Shown here: positions 2,625-58,666 of the stretch, in pieces
Position numbering within the stretch: position 1 is the first letter of the stretch
Layout of the letters: each line of letters begins with the position of its first letter
Assembly (NCBI GenBank): GCA_037447115.1
Contig: JBBIHH010000013.1
Coordinates: forward strand, 18,772 to 82,771
Direction of reading: 5' to 3'
Source of the DNA: Acidobacteriota bacterium
Lineage (GTDB): Bacteria > Acidobacteriota > Polarisedimenticolia > Polarisedimenticolales > JBBIHH01
DNA length: 64,000 bases
Notes under the pieces: model-generated
Told to the model about the DNA's origin: nothing
Seen by the model: the letters and a program-made list of their open reading frames with translations, nothing else
The model's database searches: none
Made by a program: the position numbers and the translations under genes

Positions 2625-4003
2625 CTGAAGTCTTTCCCCCGCACCACAGCGGCGAGGATGGCGGCCACCGCCAGGGGCGCGACGTAGCGAATGAAAAAGC
2701 GCCACAACCCGTAGGAAAACCAGCGCGGGGTCGCCTCGTCCAAGAGCTCCGAGGCGGTGGCCTCGCGCGTCATGAACCAGCCCGCGCCGAGCGTGATCGC
2801 CAGGCCGCCGCACGGCAGCAGCCAATTGGCCGCGAGGTGATCGAGGTGCGCGAACAGGCCACGCTTGCCCGCGAAGAGCTGCAAGTCCGCCAGCGCCGGC
2901 CAGGCCCCGAAGGACAGCGCGCAGAGGACGGACAGGCCGAAGGTCGCCGCCGAGCAGCCGACCACGGCCGCCGGGCGGGAGACCCCGCGCTCGTCGATGA
3001 CGCAGCTCACGACGACCTCGAGCAGCGAGATCGTGGAGGTCAGGGCCGCGAAGGCCACGAGCACGTAGAACAGCGGCCCGAGGAACTGGCCGAAGGGCAG
3101 GCGCGTGTAGAACAGCTCCGGCAACGTCATGAACAGCATGCCCACCGTGGAGCCGGTGATCCGGTCCGCGAGCTCGAAGGTGAAGATGACGGAGAACATG
3201 ATGACCGCGGCCGCGAGCGCGATCAGGGTATCGAGGACCACCACCATCGCCGCGGAGCGCACGATGGATTCCCGGCGGCCGAGGTAGGAGCCGTAGGTGA
3301 TCATCGCGCCCATGCCGAGCGAGAGGCTGAAGAACGCCTGCCCCAGGGCCTCGAGGGCCCCCAGGGGCCGGAACGACTCGGGGCGCGGGACGAAGGTGAA
3401 TGCCAGGGCCTGTCCCGCGCCGGGAAGGGTGAGGGCGCGAAGGAGCAGCAGCACCAGGATGCCGAACAGCGCGGGCATGAGTATCCGCGAGGCCCGCTCG
3501 ATGCCGCCTCCGATACCCCCATAGACGATCCAGGCCGTCAGCGCCAAAAACGCGGCCGCGAGGGTCACCTGGAGCGGGCCGTTGCCGAGGAACGCCTCGA
3601 AGCTTTCCCCGCTCGCCGTGCCCGGAACGAAGCCGCCGAACGTCCAGCGCAGGCACTTCCAGAAGTACTGCAGCGACCAGCCCGCGACGACGGTGTAGTA
3701 ACCGAGGATCACGAATCCCGTGAAGACGCCCAGCCCGCCGACCCAGCCCCACCCAGGGCCCACCGCCTCGCGCAGCGCACCCACGGGATTGCGCTGCGTC
3801 TTGCGCCCGATGAGCATCTCGGCCACCATGATCGGCAGCCCCACGCAGGCGACGCAGATCAGGTAGACGAGGACGAACAGTCCCCCGCCGTTCTCCCAAC
3901 TGAGATACGGAAACTTCCACAGGTTGCCGAGCCCGATCGCGCTGCCCGCGGCGGCGAGGACGAAGCCAGCCCTCGACGTCCAGTGACCGCGATCGTTCGC
4001 CAT
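2621..4003 (-). CDS. Sodium-dependent transporter, NSS/SNF family
   Basis: GSAIGLGNLWKFPY, GQAFFSLSLGMG and AALTSTISLLE motifs; many TM segments. Confidence 0.95.
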   Translation of the reverse strand: MANDRGHWTSRAGFVLAAAGSAIGLGNLWKFPYLSWENGGGLFVLVYLICVACVGLPIMVAEMLIGRKTQRNPVGALREAVGPGWGWVGGLGVFTGFVILGYYTVVAGWSLQYFWKCLRWTFGGFVPGTASGESFEAFLGNGPLQVTLAAAFLALTAWIVYGGIGGGIERASRILMPALFGILVLLLLRALTLPGAGQALAFTFVPRPESFRPLGALEALGQAFFSLSLGMGAMITYGSYLGRRESIVRSAAMVVVLDTLIALAAAVIMFSVIFTFELADRITGSTVGMLFMTLPELFYTRLPFGQFLGPLFYVLVAFAALTSTISLLEVVVSCVIDERGVSRPAAVVGCSAATFGLSVLCALSFGAWPALADLQLFAGKRGLFAHLDHLAANWLLPCGGLAITLGAGWFMTREATASELLDEATPRWFSYGLWRFFIRYVAPLAVAAILAAVVRGKDFS

Positions 4004-21671: not shown

Positions 21672-21747
21672 GCGGGAATAGCTCAGTTGGTAGAGCATCA
21701 GCTTCCCAAGCTGAGGGTCGCGGGTTCGAATCCCGTTTCCCGCTCCA
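21672..21747 (+). tRNA. tRNA-Gly (anticodon CCC)
   Basis: GCGGGAA acceptor stem, TCAGC-TTCCCAA-GCTGA anticodon arm, GTTCGAA T-loop, encoded CCA; extended -10 TGCTATGCT at 21616-21624. Confidence 0.97.
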
Positions 21748-27959: not shown

Positions 27960-28369
<410 letters not shown>

Positions 28370-28427
28370 GCGGTGCGGCGATCTCTCGAATCCGGGTGGC
28401 CGGGGGAGGGATCGCGCCGCTTTTTTT
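28370..28427 (+). terminator. Intrinsic terminator after rnpB
   Basis: GCGATCTCTC/GAGGGATCGC stem followed by T7. Confidence 0.6.
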
Positions 28428-42875: not shown

Positions 42876-43262
42876 ATGGTGCCGCAGGATTGCCGCTACA
42901 CGCGGGAGCACGAATGGATCCGCCTGGAGGGGGAGCACGCGCGGATGGGGATCACGGACTTCGCCCAGAGCGAGCTGGGGGATATCGTCTACGTCGAGCT
43001 CCCGGAAGTGGGGCGCCGCGTGCGCGCGGGCGAGGCGCTGGGGACGGTGGAGTCGGTCAAGGCCGTCTCGGAGATCTACGCGCCCGCGAGCGGCGAGGTC
43101 GTCGAGGTGAACGCGGCGCTCGCCGAGGCTCCCGAGCGCATCAACCGCGATCCCTACGGGGAGGGCTGGCTGTGCCGACTGCGGCTCGAGGACCCCTCCG
43201 AGGTGGAGGCGCTGATGGACGCGCCGGCCTACGCGGCGTTCATCGCGGGCGGGGCTTCCTGA
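42876..43262 (+). CDS. gcvH: Glycine cleavage H protein
   Basis: HEW, GITDFAQ, VESVKA lipoyl lysine, PYGEGW. Confidence 0.96.
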   Translation: MVPQDCRYTREHEWIRLEGEHARMGITDFAQSELGDIVYVELPEVGRRVRAGEALGTVESVKAVSEIYAPASGEVVEVNAALAEAPERINRDPYGEGWLCRLRLEDPSEVEALMDAPAYAAFIAGGAS

Positions 43263-43869
43263 GGGGGCGGGGCCGCAGGTAGGCCAGCAGGTCGAGGCCC
43301 GCCGCACGGAACAGCTCCGGCAGCCGCTCCAGAGGCAAGCCCACGACGTTGCTCCAGGAGCCCTGGATGGCCTTGCACAACAGCGCCCCGCGCCCCTGAA
43401 TCCCGTAGGCTCCCGCCTTGTCGGCACCCTCGCCGCTCGCCAGGTACCAAGCGATCCATGGTTCGGCGAGCTCTCGGAACTGGACGCGGGTGCGCTCTAC
43501 GGCGGTGTGGGTGCTGCCTGCGGGCCCGCGCCACAAGCACAGCCCGGTCCACACGTCGTGGACACGCCCGGACAAGGCGCCGAGCATGCGGCGCGCGTGC
43601 GCGCGGTCTCGGGGTTTGCCCAAAAGGCGGCGGTCCAGGGCCACCACCGTGTCGGCGGCGAGCACGCAGGCGGCCGCTCGGGCGGGAAGGAGCGCCGCGG
43701 CGGCCAGGGCCTTGGCCAGCGCGAGGCGTTCGACGTAAGCTTCCGGCGCTTCGCCGCGGCGGGGCCGCTCGTCCACCCGCACGCGCAGCCCTCGGGCCCG
43801 CAGACCCGCCGCCCGCAGCAGCGCGCGGCGGCGCGCCGAGGTGGAGGCGAGCCAGAGCGTGGGCGGCAT
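43240..43869 (-). CDS. maf: Maf-family nucleotide pyrophosphatase
   Basis: LASTSARR, AADTVV..LGKP, DKAGAYGIQ, NVVGLP. Confidence 0.93.
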   Translation of the reverse strand: MPPTLWLASTSARRRALLRAAGLRARGLRVRVDERPRRGEAPEAYVERLALAKALAAAALLPARAAACVLAADTVVALDRRLLGKPRDRAHARRMLGALSGRVHDVWTGLCLWRGPAGSTHTAVERTRVQFRELAEPWIAWYLASGEGADKAGAYGIQGRGALLCKAIQGSWSNVVGLPLERLPELFRAAGLDLLAYLRPRPLRKPRPR

Positions 43870-43915
43870 GGAGCCTCGACTCTAGCATCGCGGAGGGCGC
43901 CGCTGGCCATGCGGT

Positions 43916-43944
43916 TTGGCGAGCTTGCCCGGGCCACCTATAAT
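43916..43944 (+). promoter_or_regulatory. Sigma70-type promoter for the UshA-like/ruvX/mltG operon
   Basis: TTGGCG-17 nt-TATAAT. Confidence 0.6.
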
Positions 43945-43994
43945 CCACGCGCAGACGGGCGCGCAGGAAGGACAGCGCGCCGGGAGGTTGCGGG

Positions 43995-45017
43995 ATGCAT
44001 CGGGGGTGGATCGCGCTCGGGATGGGGGCGGTTCTCGCCGCTGCCTCGGTCCCCTCGGGGGCTCAAGCCGGCCACACGCTGCAGCTACCCACGGACGCGC
44101 TCGTGGCCCCGGGGCAGCCGCCCAGTCTCGTGTTGCTCTACACGGGCAACGTGATCGGGTATCTCGAGCCCTGCGGCTGAAAGAACAACCCCTCGGGGGG
44201 CCTGGCCCGGCGGGCTTGGCTGACACAGCAGATCCGACAGCAACTCGGCGGCGCTCCGGTGGTGTGGTTCGACCTCGGCAACTTCTGGGACAATCCCACC
44301 TCGGACGGCCTCGCCAAAACCGAGGGGCTGGTCGAGGCCATGAACCGGCTGGGCTATGCGGCGGCGAACGTGGGCGAGCGCGATCTCGTCCTGGGTTACG
44401 ACGAGTTCGTGGCCCGCACGGCGAAGGCCAGTTTCCCCTTCGTTTCGGCCAACATCGTGCGCGAGGACACCAAGGCCCCGGTGTTCGCCCCGTACACGGT
44501 CCTGGAGGTGCCGGGCCGCGCGGGACAGAAGTGGCGCCTGGGCGTGCTCGGTCTCGTGCGCTTCAACCCCGTGTTCCTCAAGGCGGGGCCCGAGAAAAGC
44601 AACCTCGTTATCGTGCCGCCCCTCGACGCGGCGCGGCGTTACGTGCCCGAGCTGCGCGAGCGGAGCGATCTCGTCGTCGTGTTGGCGGCGCTCCATCGCG
44701 ACGACGCGCACGTGATCGCGCGAGAGGTTCCAGGCATCGACCTCGTTTTGGGCAGCTACGGGGCCATCTACTCCTCGGCGATGGACACGGAGGGCGGCGT
44801 GCCGATCCTCTATGCGGGCCACCAGGGCCAGCGCGTCGGCGAAACGCGGATCTTCCTCGATGCGGGAAGCAAGCTTTCGGGCAGCGTGTCGTTCCTGCAC
44901 ACGCTGACAGCCCGCTATCCTTCCGATCCCGAAATGGAGCGCTTCGTCGGTGGGATCCTGTCGCGCCTGGCCGGCGCCGCCGCGCCCGCTGCGAGCTCGA
45001 CGGGCGGGGGGACGTGA
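43995..45017 (+). CDS. Secreted UshA/5'-nucleotidase-like probable selenoprotein (340 aa, TGA at codon 62, C-G-U motif)
   Basis: GGAGG RBS and signal peptide. ORFs 43995-44180 and 44259-45017 share a frame and are separated only by TGA 44178-44180. The joined sequence LLYTGNVIGYLEPCG-U-KNNPSGGLARR...FDLGNF...NVGERD...FVSANI is a continuous metallophosphoesterase-type N-terminal domain. Confidence 0.85.
44181..44216 (+). promoter_or_regulatory. Candidate bacterial SECIS-like hairpin
   Basis: A-rich spacer after the TGA, then CTCG(44192-95)/CGGG(44211-14) enclosing GGGC-CTG-GCCC (44198-44208). An alternative CCCC-TCG-GGGG hairpin is possible. Folded by eye only. Confidence 0.4.
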
Positions 45018-45472
45018 GGCGCGGCGCCGGCGGCCGCATCCTGGCCCTCGATCTCGGCGCGCGCCGTATCGGGCTGGCCCTTTCCGACTCCCTCGGCTGG
45101 ACGGCGCAGCCCCTCGGCGTGCTCGTGCGAGGCAAGCTGCGCGAGGATCTGGACCAGCTGCGGGAACTCGTGCGCAGGCACGGGGTGGGCTGCGTCGTCG
45201 TCGGGCGTCCCCTGCTGCTGTCGGGCGAGGCAGGTGCGCAAGCGCGCCGCAGCGAGGCCTTCGCCGAGAGACTCGGCCAGGCGCTGCCCGGCGTGCAGAT
45301 CGAGCTGTGGGACGAGCGCTGGACGAGCGCGGAGGCAGAGCGCCTGCTGCGCGCCGCGGGCGTGGCGCGCGGGCGTCGTCGCGAGCGCGTGGACACGCTG
45401 GCCGCGGTGCTGATCCTCGAGAGCTTCATGGCCGCACGGCCGTCGCGCCGCACCGCAAGCGAGGAGGATTGA
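45014..45472 (+). CDS. ruvX: RuvX/YqgF pre-16S rRNA nuclease
   Basis: LALDLGARRIGLALSD, VVGRP, DERWTS, DTLAAVLIL. Confidence 0.93.
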   Translation: MRRGAGGRILALDLGARRIGLALSDSLGWTAQPLGVLVRGKLREDLDQLRELVRRHGVGCVVVGRPLLLSGEAGAQARRSEAFAERLGQALPGVQIELWDERWTSAEAERLLRAAGVARGRRRERVDTLAAVLILESFMAARPSRRTASEED

Positions 45473-45478
45473 GGCGGC

Positions 45479-46510
45479 ATGGGGCGACGGCTCGGCTGGC
45501 TGCTCGCATCCGCCGCCGCCGCCGCGGGGGCGCTCGTCATCGTGGGCGGGCTGTGGGTCTACACGGAGCTGCGCGCACCGTATCTCGGGTGGGAGGGGGA
45601 GGCGGCGGTGGTCGAGATCCCGCGCGGGTGCCCTGCGGGGCAAGCGCTCCGACGGCTGGGCCAGGCCGGTGTGATCCGCGCTCCGGGGCTCGTGCGCCTG
45701 TGGGTCGTGCTGCGGGGCGGCGCGACGCGACTTCAGGCGGGAGAGTACCGGTTCGATCGCGCCCACACGCCCCTCGAGGTCCTGCGCCGGCTGGAGCAGG
45801 GCGAGGTGTGGCTGCATCCCGTGACGGTTCCCGAGGGCTTGAGCCTGGAGGAAACCGCGGTGCGGCTGGCGGAGGCAGGCTTCGGCTCGGTCGAGGCCCT
45901 GCGGGAGGCTTTCGCAGACCCCGATCCCATCCGGGTCTTCGATCCCGACGCACCCGATCTCGAGGGGTATCTCTTCCCCGACACGTACCATTTCCCCCGG
46001 GGCGTCGCACCCCAGGAAGTGGCGCGCGCCATGGCGCGCCGCTTCCTCGAGGTGGTGGGCGATGACTATCGGGTTCGGGTAGCACGATTGGGCTTGACAG
46101 CGAGGCAGGCCGTCACGCTCGCTTCCATGATCGAGAAGGAGACCTCCGTCGCCGAGGAACGGCGCCGCGTCAGCCGTGTCTTTCACAACCGGCTGGCCCG
46201 CGGGATGCGTCTCGAGTGCGATCCCACGGTGCTCTATGCGCTCGAGCGCGAGGGTCGTCCCGTGGGACGGCTCCTCTACGCCCATCTGGAGTTCGACTCC
46301 CCGTGGAACACGTACCGCATCACCGGGCTGCCCCCCGGGCCGATCTGCAGCCCGGGACGGGAAAGCCTCGAGGCTGCCGCCGATCCCGAGCCGGGCGACT
46401 GGCTTTACTTCGTGGCCTCGCCGGGGGGCGGGCACCGCTTCTCGCGCGACCTGGAGGAGCACCAACGTGCCGTGCAGCTTTGGCGCGAGTACCGGCGCTC
46501 GCGCCCCTGA
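45479..46510 (+). CDS. mltG: Endolytic transglycosylase
   Basis: LEGYLFPDTY, ASMIEKE, SPWNTY..GLPPGPI, LYFVA. Confidence 0.95.
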   Translation: MGRRLGWLLASAAAAAGALVIVGGLWVYTELRAPYLGWEGEAAVVEIPRGCPAGQALRRLGQAGVIRAPGLVRLWVVLRGGATRLQAGEYRFDRAHTPLEVLRRLEQGEVWLHPVTVPEGLSLEETAVRLAEAGFGSVEALREAFADPDPIRVFDPDAPDLEGYLFPDTYHFPRGVAPQEVARAMARRFLEVVGDDYRVRVARLGLTARQAVTLASMIEKETSVAEERRRVSRVFHNRLARGMRLECDPTVLYALEREGRPVGRLLYAHLEFDSPWNTYRITGLPPGPICSPGRESLEAAADPEPGDWLYFVASPGGGHRFSRDLEEHQRAVQLWREYRRSRP

Positions 46511-57937: not shown

Positions 57938-58666
57938 ATGTGGCTCTACCGACTGGCCCAGGGCCTGCGCCCCGTGCTCCGCCTCTACTGGGACCTGCGC
58001 CTGGAGGGCGCCGTGGACGCGCTTCCGCGCGAGGGACCGTTGATCGTCGTGGCCAACCACTCCAGCTTCCTCGATCCCTGGCTGCTGGGGGCGGTGTTCC
58101 CGCGGCCGCTGCATTACCTGATCACGCGGGAGTGGTACGATCGCTCGCCGTTGTGGCGCGCGTTTTTCCGCGCATGGGGCGTGATCCCCGTCCAGCGCGA
58201 TCCCCAGGCGACTGTGGACGAGGTGGCCCGGGTGGTGGAGCGGGGCGAGGTGGTGGGCGTATTCCCCGAGGGCCGCATCAGCCACGACGGCCGGATGCAG
58301 CGCTTCCGCTCCGGCGTGGTCTACCTCGCGGCGCGCACCGGCGCACCGGTGCTGCCCGTGGGTCTCGCTGGTCCCTACGAGATCCTGCCGCGGCACCGGC
58401 GATGGCCTCGCCGGGGGCGAGTCGTGGCGCGGGTGGGCCTGCCTCTGCGCTTCGCGGGAAGCCCCGAGGCGCGGCCCTCGCGCCAGGCGGTGCGGGCGTT
58501 TCGAGAGGCCCTGTTTCGAGCGGTGGCATCCCTCGCGGACGCGCCCGCCCCCGAGGCTGGTGCCGAAGGGGAGACTCGAACTCCCACGGGCTTGCACCCA
58601 CTAGATCCTGAATCTAGCGCGTCTACCAGTTCCGCCACTTCGGCACGGGATCGCGTACCCGGGTGA
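57938..58666 (+). CDS. Lysophospholipid acyltransferase (PlsC family)
   Basis: NHSSFLD, FPEGR, PVLPV; the C-terminal tail runs antisense through tRNA-Leu. Confidence 0.9.
   Translation: MWLYRLAQGLRPVLRLYWDLRLEGAVDALPREGPLIVVANHSSFLDPWLLGAVFPRPLHYLITREWYDRSPLWRAFFRAWGVIPVQRDPQATVDEVARVVERGEVVGVFPEGRISHDGRMQRFRSGVVYLAARTGAPVLPVGLAGPYEILPRHRRWPRRGRVVARVGLPLRFAGSPEARPSRQAVRAFREALFRAVASLADAPAPEAGAEGETRTPTGLHPLDPESSASTSSATSARDRVPG
58558..58644 (-). tRNA. tRNA-Leu (anticodon CAG)
   Basis: GCCGAAG acceptor stem, CTAGA-TTCAGGA-TCTAG anticodon arm, long variable arm, GTTCGAG T-loop, ACCA end. Confidence 0.97.

Follow-up and report, generated by a model that had tools for sequence, protein, structure and literature searches.

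The window analyzed here is the whole 64,000-nucleotide stretch of contig JBBIHH010000013.1 from an Acidobacteriota bacterium, and at its positions 43995–45017 it contains one gene for an exported selenoprotein of the UshA-like "CxU" family, ~315 residues long in its mature form, in which an in-frame TGA stands for selenocysteine (Sec). The gene and its local signals, including the putative selenocysteine insertion sequence (SECIS), are as follows.

43916..43944, + strand: promoter-like site TTGGCG-17 nt-TATAAT, agreeing with the consensus at 10/12 positions (consensus match only)
43982..43987, + strand: Shine-Dalgarno-like GGGAGG, 7 nt 5' of the ATG (direct reading)
43995..45017, + strand: UshA-like selenoprotein gene with Cys60-Gly61-Sec62 (reading frame, NF041198 match of 160.8 bits, homologues)
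43995..44069, + strand: putative secretory (Sec-type) signal peptide of 25 aa, with ...AQA before the cleavage point and G after it (sequence reading)
44172..44180, + strand: TGC-GGC-TGA, the Cys-Gly-Sec motif, with the Sec codon at 44178–44180 (codons read and homologue column)
44189..44200, + strand: small conserved hairpin CCCC-N4-GGGG, 5' of the SECIS stem (RNAalifold on 25 Sec loci, columns 21–24 with 29–32)
44199..44221, + strand: SECIS hairpin GGCC-U-GGCCC-[GGC]-GGGCU-U-GGCU (fold prediction and comparison across Sec loci)
44259..44261, + strand: GTG taken as the start by an automatic gene call, which is truncated (252 aa); the real start is the ATG at 43995 (open reading frame list; record P0002; 26 upstream codons conserved as protein)

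An earlier note on this DNA had proposed that two open reading frames (ORFs) of 61 and 252 aa join across TGC-GGC-TGA into a single 340-aa protein, and frame translation confirmed a single 340-codon frame across this in-frame motif. The 61-aa ORF, which opens with ATG (43995–44180), closes at the TGA at 44178–44180, directly preceded by TGC (44172–44174) and GGC (44175–44177). Past the TGA, 26 codons (KNNPSGGLARRAWL...) remain open in frame as far as GTG 44259, the start of the 252-aa ORF, and this ORF and the joined frame both end at the TGA at 45015–45017. In the read-through protein, EPCGU occupies residues 58–62. The GGxAR motif that the note had placed in the 26 intervening codons is present as a GGLAR stretch, which aligns with the G(G/E)L-x-(R/N) of canonical 5'-nucleotidases. 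The promoter, ribosome-binding site, and signal peptide that the note had reported upstream could likewise be read from consensus and sequence: the search for promoter-like sites returned 1 site, against a mean of 0.0 in 50 shuffles, and the N-terminus, MHRGWIALGMGAVLAAASVPSGAQA followed by G, looks like a Sec-type signal peptide in its n/h/c layout and A-x-A site, with similarly hydrophobic N-termini in homologues.

The same locus could alternatively yield two products, i.e., an exported peptide of 61 residues and a separate protein of 252 residues initiated at GTG 44259. Both ORFs do exist under genetic code table 11, and decoding of UGA as Sec is never fully efficient, so that some termination product would be expected. 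However, the downstream GTG has no clear Shine-Dalgarno sequence 5' of it, only GGCGG, as the earlier note had pointed out, and a protein starting there would have neither a signal peptide nor the fold's first strand. Moreover, the protein is at its most conserved over the 26 codons between the two ORFs (PxGGLARRAW), and Cys-form orthologues are continuous across this region. We thus give very little credence to two separate products. In the public protein collection, the sole record for the locus is the truncated 252-aa P0002, hence the joined protein has indeed been missed by standard gene calling. The description of the selenoprotein as "hidden" holds in this sense for the automatic gene call, but not for the family, which was already catalogued.

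The distribution of TGA and Cys codons in relatives was evaluated through a six-frame search with the joined protein as query, covering the genome itself and 40 relatives from its order and class (41 genomes). A match was obtained in 39 of these; in 31 genomes the best match contained a single in-frame TGA, and in the other 8 it was free of in-frame TGA. When 20 loci were translated and aligned, the same column held TGA in 17 (E/D-P-C-G-U) and Cys in 3 (E-D-C-G-C), with strong conservation on both flanks (Y-T-G-D-V-I-G-Y on the N-terminal side, N-P-x-G-G-L-A-R-R-A-W on the C-terminal side). Named genome contigs were scanned separately with a single peptide pattern, which is thus no census; of the 19 loci obtained, TGA was present in 13 and Cys in 6. 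These named contigs place the clade of related loci in the Acidobacteriota, Candidatus Polarisedimenticolia. Once 6 duplicates were dropped, 33 distinct loci were available, 26 with TGA and 7 with Cys at the Sec column, which agrees with the expectation of the earlier note that homologues would carry either codon at exactly this position and be conserved on both sides. Protein identity among the related loci with TGA at this column is only 40–57%. In a broader sample of the phylum (301 genomes), 39 genomes had a match at E ≤ 1e-30, among them every one of the 26 sampled from this order and class, along with 12 of 274 others; the 39 include one genome marked as unpublished (G177).

Several further observations concern the alternation between Sec and Cys. 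In a tree of the 33 domains, the backbone is unresolved, so that it offers no basis for counting Sec/Cys switches or losses of the haem domain described below. Within one well-supported clade of a single family (f4), the Cys forms L046 and L048 are nested with the Sec forms L044, L045, L047, and L058, which points to repeated Sec/Cys switching, in one direction or the other. One relative carries two tandem copies (G030:C73:1848-2810 and 3002-3967), one with TGA and one without, and a second, Cys-type paralogue is located elsewhere in several other genomes (e.g., L060).

The genome also encodes the machinery for Sec insertion. Profile searches identified selB (330 bits), selA (523 bits), and selD (367 bits), each above its curated cut-off, along with a tRNA-Sec at 67.9 bits (gathering score, 47), reported by ARAGORN as tRNA-SeC(tca). 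The SelD of this genome (G000:C12:12380-13318, locus L010) is itself a selenoprotein, with one TGA in the usual S-C-A-G-U context. The selD UGA is followed, at a distance of about 33 nt, by a 7-bp hairpin whose loop is GUG.

These data bear directly on the possibility of a nonsense pseudogene, in which an UshA-like gene would have lost its TGC or TGT to a TGA mutation, or in which the TGA would come from an assembly error. Although the frame is broken under table 11 and the public call is a 252-aa fragment, the TGA occupies the same column in 26 of 33 distinct loci despite the low protein identity between them, the Sec machinery is present in the genome, and conservation runs on through the 26 codons past the TGA. 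In addition, a low-depth contig from a second sample, representing a strain variant, spans 43900–44268 with 6 differences, none of them at the TGA, which indicates that the TGA is not a sequencing error. Logan contigs from one run are identical over the stretch, although this run is possibly a source of the same DNA. Overall, we regard a pseudogene or an assembly error as extremely improbable.

The GC-rich hairpin that the earlier note had seen past the TGA is present at 44199–44221, where it is both conserved and covarying. Its upper stem pairs 44204–44208 with 44212–44216 around a GGC loop (44209–44211), and a lower stem extends beyond a U/U mismatch; the loop begins 28 nt past the UGA, and the hairpin region encodes G-L-A-R-R-A-W, within GGLARRAW. 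The bacterial SECIS (bSECIS) model, as summarized in PMC13188914, calls for a loop of 3–9 nt with a G in its first two positions, an upper stem of 4–16 bp, and a spacing of 16–37 nt from the UGA. The GGC loop, the upper stem of 5 bp with its additional lower stem, and the distance of 28 nt all agree with this model. Across 25 Sec loci, 95.6% of the cells at the nine stem pairs were standard pairs, while only 21–69% were paired in controls in which the 3' partner was slid by 1–3 columns, and none of 500 shuffles matched the observed pairing or covariation score. The basal pair of the upper stem (columns 36–48) is G-C in 17 of these loci, C-G in 6, G-U in 1, and U-G in 1, and the changes sit on the wobble bases of one Leu and one Ala codon. 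The Sec forms of the f4 clade (L044, L045, L047, and L058) have the C-G variant of this stem in common. RNAalifold independently recovered the same stem from the 25 Sec loci, as well as the small CCCC-N4-GGGG hairpin 5' of it, which displayed zero compensatory changes. Loop variants across loci are GGA, GGC, GUC, or GUA.

Sec and Cys loci differ in this region. The mean energy of the fixed structure was −12.7 kcal/mol for the 26 TGA loci vs −1.8 for the 7 Cys loci, the hairpin being weaker in 5 of the 7 Cys forms. Similarly, synonymous codon identity over the hairpin codons reached 0.66 in 25 Sec loci vs 0.34 in 6 Cys loci, while values 3' of the hairpin were alike (0.58 for Sec vs 0.56 for Cys).

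Some of the evidence on the hairpin nevertheless speaks against its role as a SECIS. Its folding energy alone is no better than that of shuffled sequences (z = 0.07) and is unremarkable in G+C-rich DNA, so that its significance rests on the comparison across genomes. The loci compared are kin, and both the shuffle statistics and the contrast at synonymous sites thus overstate independence, while repeated compensatory change is confined to one stem pair. Two of the 7 Cys forms (L046 and L060) retain most of the hairpin, and Rfam returned no relevant family around the TGA at E values up to 10. Taken together, the comparative evidence shows the UGA to be read as Sec via this hairpin and the Sec pathway predicted for the genome. 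In the mechanism we propose, selA, selB, selC, and selD of this genome would supply the Sec pathway, and SelB carrying Sec-tRNA(Sec) would bind the hairpin at 44199–44221 and thereby deliver Sec to the ribosome at the UGA at 44178–44180. The central proposal of the earlier note, a Sec-decoded and exported UshA-like protein, is thus well supported: every check it had named that could be computed, covering homologues, SECIS, Sec machinery, and a second assembly, turned out favourably.

The best NCBIfam match of the joined protein is NF041198, "UshA_like_PCGU, UshA-like (seleno)protein", with 160.8 bits (151.9 in the genome scan). The protein resembles this family in its E-P-C-G-U motif, its UshA-like domain, and its alternation between Sec and Cys, but it covers only profile positions 18–271 of 519 and does not reach the cut-off of 275 bits, because the C-terminal portion with the four-haem cytochrome is missing. 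This portion corresponds to profile positions of about 400–519 and includes four CxxCH motifs, while the protein contains no CxxCH 3' of the Sec site. By comparison, a syntenic orthologue (L034, 54% identity) carries four CxxCH beyond its UshA-like domain and scores 275.3 bits, and another locus (L066) also carries four. The haem-less form was found in 19 of 20 loci from the order of this genome, and the four-haem domain in 10 of the 19 named-contig loci. NF049981 (UshA-like selenoprotein family 2) is short as well and displays a weak similarity to the protein over its first 88 profile positions; however, the score (41.4 bits) is far under the cut-off of 140, and the motif is CxU here vs CxxU there, CxxU being the motif given for UshA-like family 2 in a table of PMC13188914. 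In Pfam, the joined protein had zero matches, including to Metallophos and 5_nucleotid_C.

The CxU family has a long record in the selenoproteome literature. A 2008 analysis of Global Ocean Sampling data lists "COG0737, UshA-like, CxU", counting 76 Sec sequences and 92 homologues with Cys (PMC2398784), and the family is also tabulated in reviews from 2022 and 2026 (PMC9312934, PMC13188914). Our literature search, with supplements outside its scope, found no functional study of UshA-like selenoproteins or NF041198. The statement of the earlier note that such proteins had been noted bioinformatically, with no established function, hence stands as far as function is concerned, but falls short for the family itself, which is catalogued and has a curated NCBIfam model named for its PCGU motif. 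The gene therefore adds a haem-less member to a selenoprotein family that has been on record since 2008, and its novelty is low.

The wider family was surveyed by searching 1.84 billion cluster representatives (50% identity) with a profile, which returned 310 at E ≤ 1e-30. Among the best 150 of these 310, 99 cover the motif, with C-x-C in 94, C-x-W in 3, S-x-C in 1, and C-x-x-C in 1, and 45 of these 99 contain at least three CxxCH. The other 51 of the best 150 begin past the motif, as expected when gene calls are cut at the TGA. Three public records (P0138, P0221, and one more) display C-G-W at the Sec column; these are probably hidden Sec forms whose TGA was translated as Trp under another genetic code.

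The protein shares with UshA, CpdB, and SoxB a homologous N-terminal domain and its export, and matched PDB entries 5eqv at E 5e-15 and 1ush at E 1e-4. Canonical metallophosphatases carry the motifs D-x-H, G-D, G-N-H-[ED], H (motif IV), and G-H-x-H. In alignments with canonical 5'-nucleotidases and with PDB chains of CpdB and UshA, D-x-H is replaced by N-V-I in this protein and by D-V-I in most relatives, so that its first Asp is Asn here but kept in most relatives; G-D becomes G-N, G-N-H-E becomes G-E-R-D, Ala stands in for the His of motif IV, and S-Y-G-A takes the place of G-H-x-H. All seven classical ligand or catalytic positions are thus replaced in this protein, including those for the two metals and the catalytic His, and a C-terminal nucleotide-binding domain is missing. 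Conversely, the canonical enzymes do not have the Cys-Gly-Sec motif. Across the 99 motif-covering representatives, the five old ligand positions that were scored vary freely, and C-G-[C/U], in a loop just past the first strand, is the sole motif kept across the wider family.

A working metal-dependent phosphoesterase, whether a nucleotidase or a SoxB-like hydrolase, in which Sec would merely line the active site, could be argued from the sequence homology to CpdB, UshA, and SoxB and from the predicted fold of a Cys orthologue. An Atlas model of this natural Cys orthologue (P0008, not the protein itself) has a predicted template modeling (TM) score of 0.87, and resembles cytochrome-c554 fusion clusters and Metallophos 5'-nucleotidases with TM scores of 0.73–0.80 (0.76 to Metallophos clusters). 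However, the absence of a Pfam Metallophos match, the replacement of all seven canonical positions here along with their variability across the family, and the lack of a C-terminal substrate-binding domain (340 aa; no 5_nucleotid_C match) all argue against such an activity. Because the classical ligands are replaced, the protein is unlikely to be a nucleotidase; more generally, it is probably not a phosphoesterase, a role to which we assign only a slim chance.

Instead, the alignments more probably indicate a module of the periplasm with Cys-Gly-Sec at its core and a putative role in redox chemistry or metal binding, as the earlier note had likewise inferred in speaking of a redox- or metal-active protein. 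In the mechanism proposed here, the N-terminal domain of metallophosphatases and 5'-nucleotidases would serve as a scaffold that no longer holds its two metals, and Cys60 and Sec62 would form a selenenylsulfide/selenolate centre of a periplasmic redox module. In many relatives, this centre would be wired to a fused c554-type four-haem domain, and since that domain is missing here, any electron partner would have to act in trans. One candidate partner is a stand-alone c554-like four-haem cytochrome of 191 aa with a signal peptide, encoded on another contig of the same genome (G000:C7, L021 1432-2007), which matches the C-terminal part of the NF041198 profile with 74 bits and is 33% identical to the fused domain. 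A 459-aa multihaem protein with a membrane part is encoded convergently to it (L021:2034-3413).

Rather than a selenenylsulfide redox pair, Cys60 and Sec62 could be ligands of a new metal or cofactor site. Sec is known to bind Ni in [NiFeSe] hydrogenase and Mo in formate dehydrogenase, and C-x-C is a common metal-binding spacing. The spacing in this protein is of that type, the conserved Asp93, Asn96, and Glu128 are still near the old metal site, and fusion to a haem domain is equally compatible with a metal redox centre. On the other hand, no cofactor-insertion genes were found nearby in the neighbourhoods examined. We consider such a site rather unlikely, although none of the analyses tells it apart from the selenenylsulfide pair.

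The genes flanking the selenoprotein gene, and the other RNA genes recorded in the window, are as follows.

42876–43262: gcvH, upstream of the selenoprotein gene
43240–43869, − strand: maf, divergent from the selenoprotein gene, its 3' end overlapping gcvH on the opposite strand
45014..45472, + strand: ruvX (TIGR00250, 108 bits), its GTG start overlapping the selenoprotein stop (GTGA)
45479–46510: mltG (TIGR00247, 211 bits)
21672–21747: tRNA-Gly(ccc)
27960–28373: ribonuclease P RNA, class A (284 bits)
58558–58644: tRNA-Leu(cag)

The GTGA overlap at 45014–45017 makes it probable that the selenoprotein gene and ruvX are co-transcribed, and suggests translational coupling between the two. This arrangement extends to relatives: in all of the 20 loci compared, RuvX is encoded downstream, and in 19 of them Maf is encoded upstream, the exception being located at a contig end. 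Conserved across the order, the arrangement of maf, this gene, and ruvX-mltG argues for a core gene passed on vertically and probably transcribed together with housekeeping genes. No common theme was found among the neighbours of a paralogue and of the Thermodesulfobacteriota and Gemmatimonas homologues, which are a flavin mononucleotide (FMN) reductase, an S41 peptidase, DUF1684, amidohydrolases, and DUF2089.

Not all of the evidence favours a redox module, and the following points count against it. The neighbours maf, ruvX, and mltG are housekeeping genes and provide no functional clue. The 191-aa cytochrome was not found in G009 and had only a weak match in G003, both of which are short-form genomes, and it is thus a weak candidate partner, as it is not kept in other genomes with the short form. 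In its grouping of families, PMC2398784 does not count the UshA-like proteins among those with Cys-based redox motifs and lists them together with SelD and FdhA. The functional part of the interpretation is drawn solely from sequence alignment, in which Asp93, Asn96, and Glu128 could be remaining metal holders. With these points weighed, we are highly confident in the explanation as a whole, namely a single exported UshA-like CxU selenoprotein in which UGA encodes Sec and which is probably a periplasmic redox module.

At a broader scale, we tentatively suggest, as a speculation that we hold to be less probable than its converse, that UshA-like C-G-[U/C] proteins may be widespread periplasmic redox modules built on a ligand-less metallophosphatase fold, in which Cys-Gly-Sec would be catalytic and would exchange electrons with a c554-type four-haem domain that is fused in 45 of the 99 motif-covering representatives and, in this genome, absent or provided in trans, the gene being a core gene of the class co-transcribed with ruvX and mltG.

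Overall, nothing in these findings will surprise a selenoprotein specialist. What is added here is a corrected gene model for an acidobacterial class, a defined SECIS, and an argument against a phosphoesterase role. Both here and in most genomes of the class, the gene is one 340-codon selenoprotein gene and not a 252-codon fragment, and its haem-less form is passed over by the NCBIfam model NF041198 owing to the cut-off. UshA-like CxU proteins are among the more frequent selenoprotein families in environmental data, and the loss of the metal ligands, the C-G-[C/U] as sole kept motif, and the fusion of nearly half of the family to a four-haem cytochrome provide starting points for their biochemistry.

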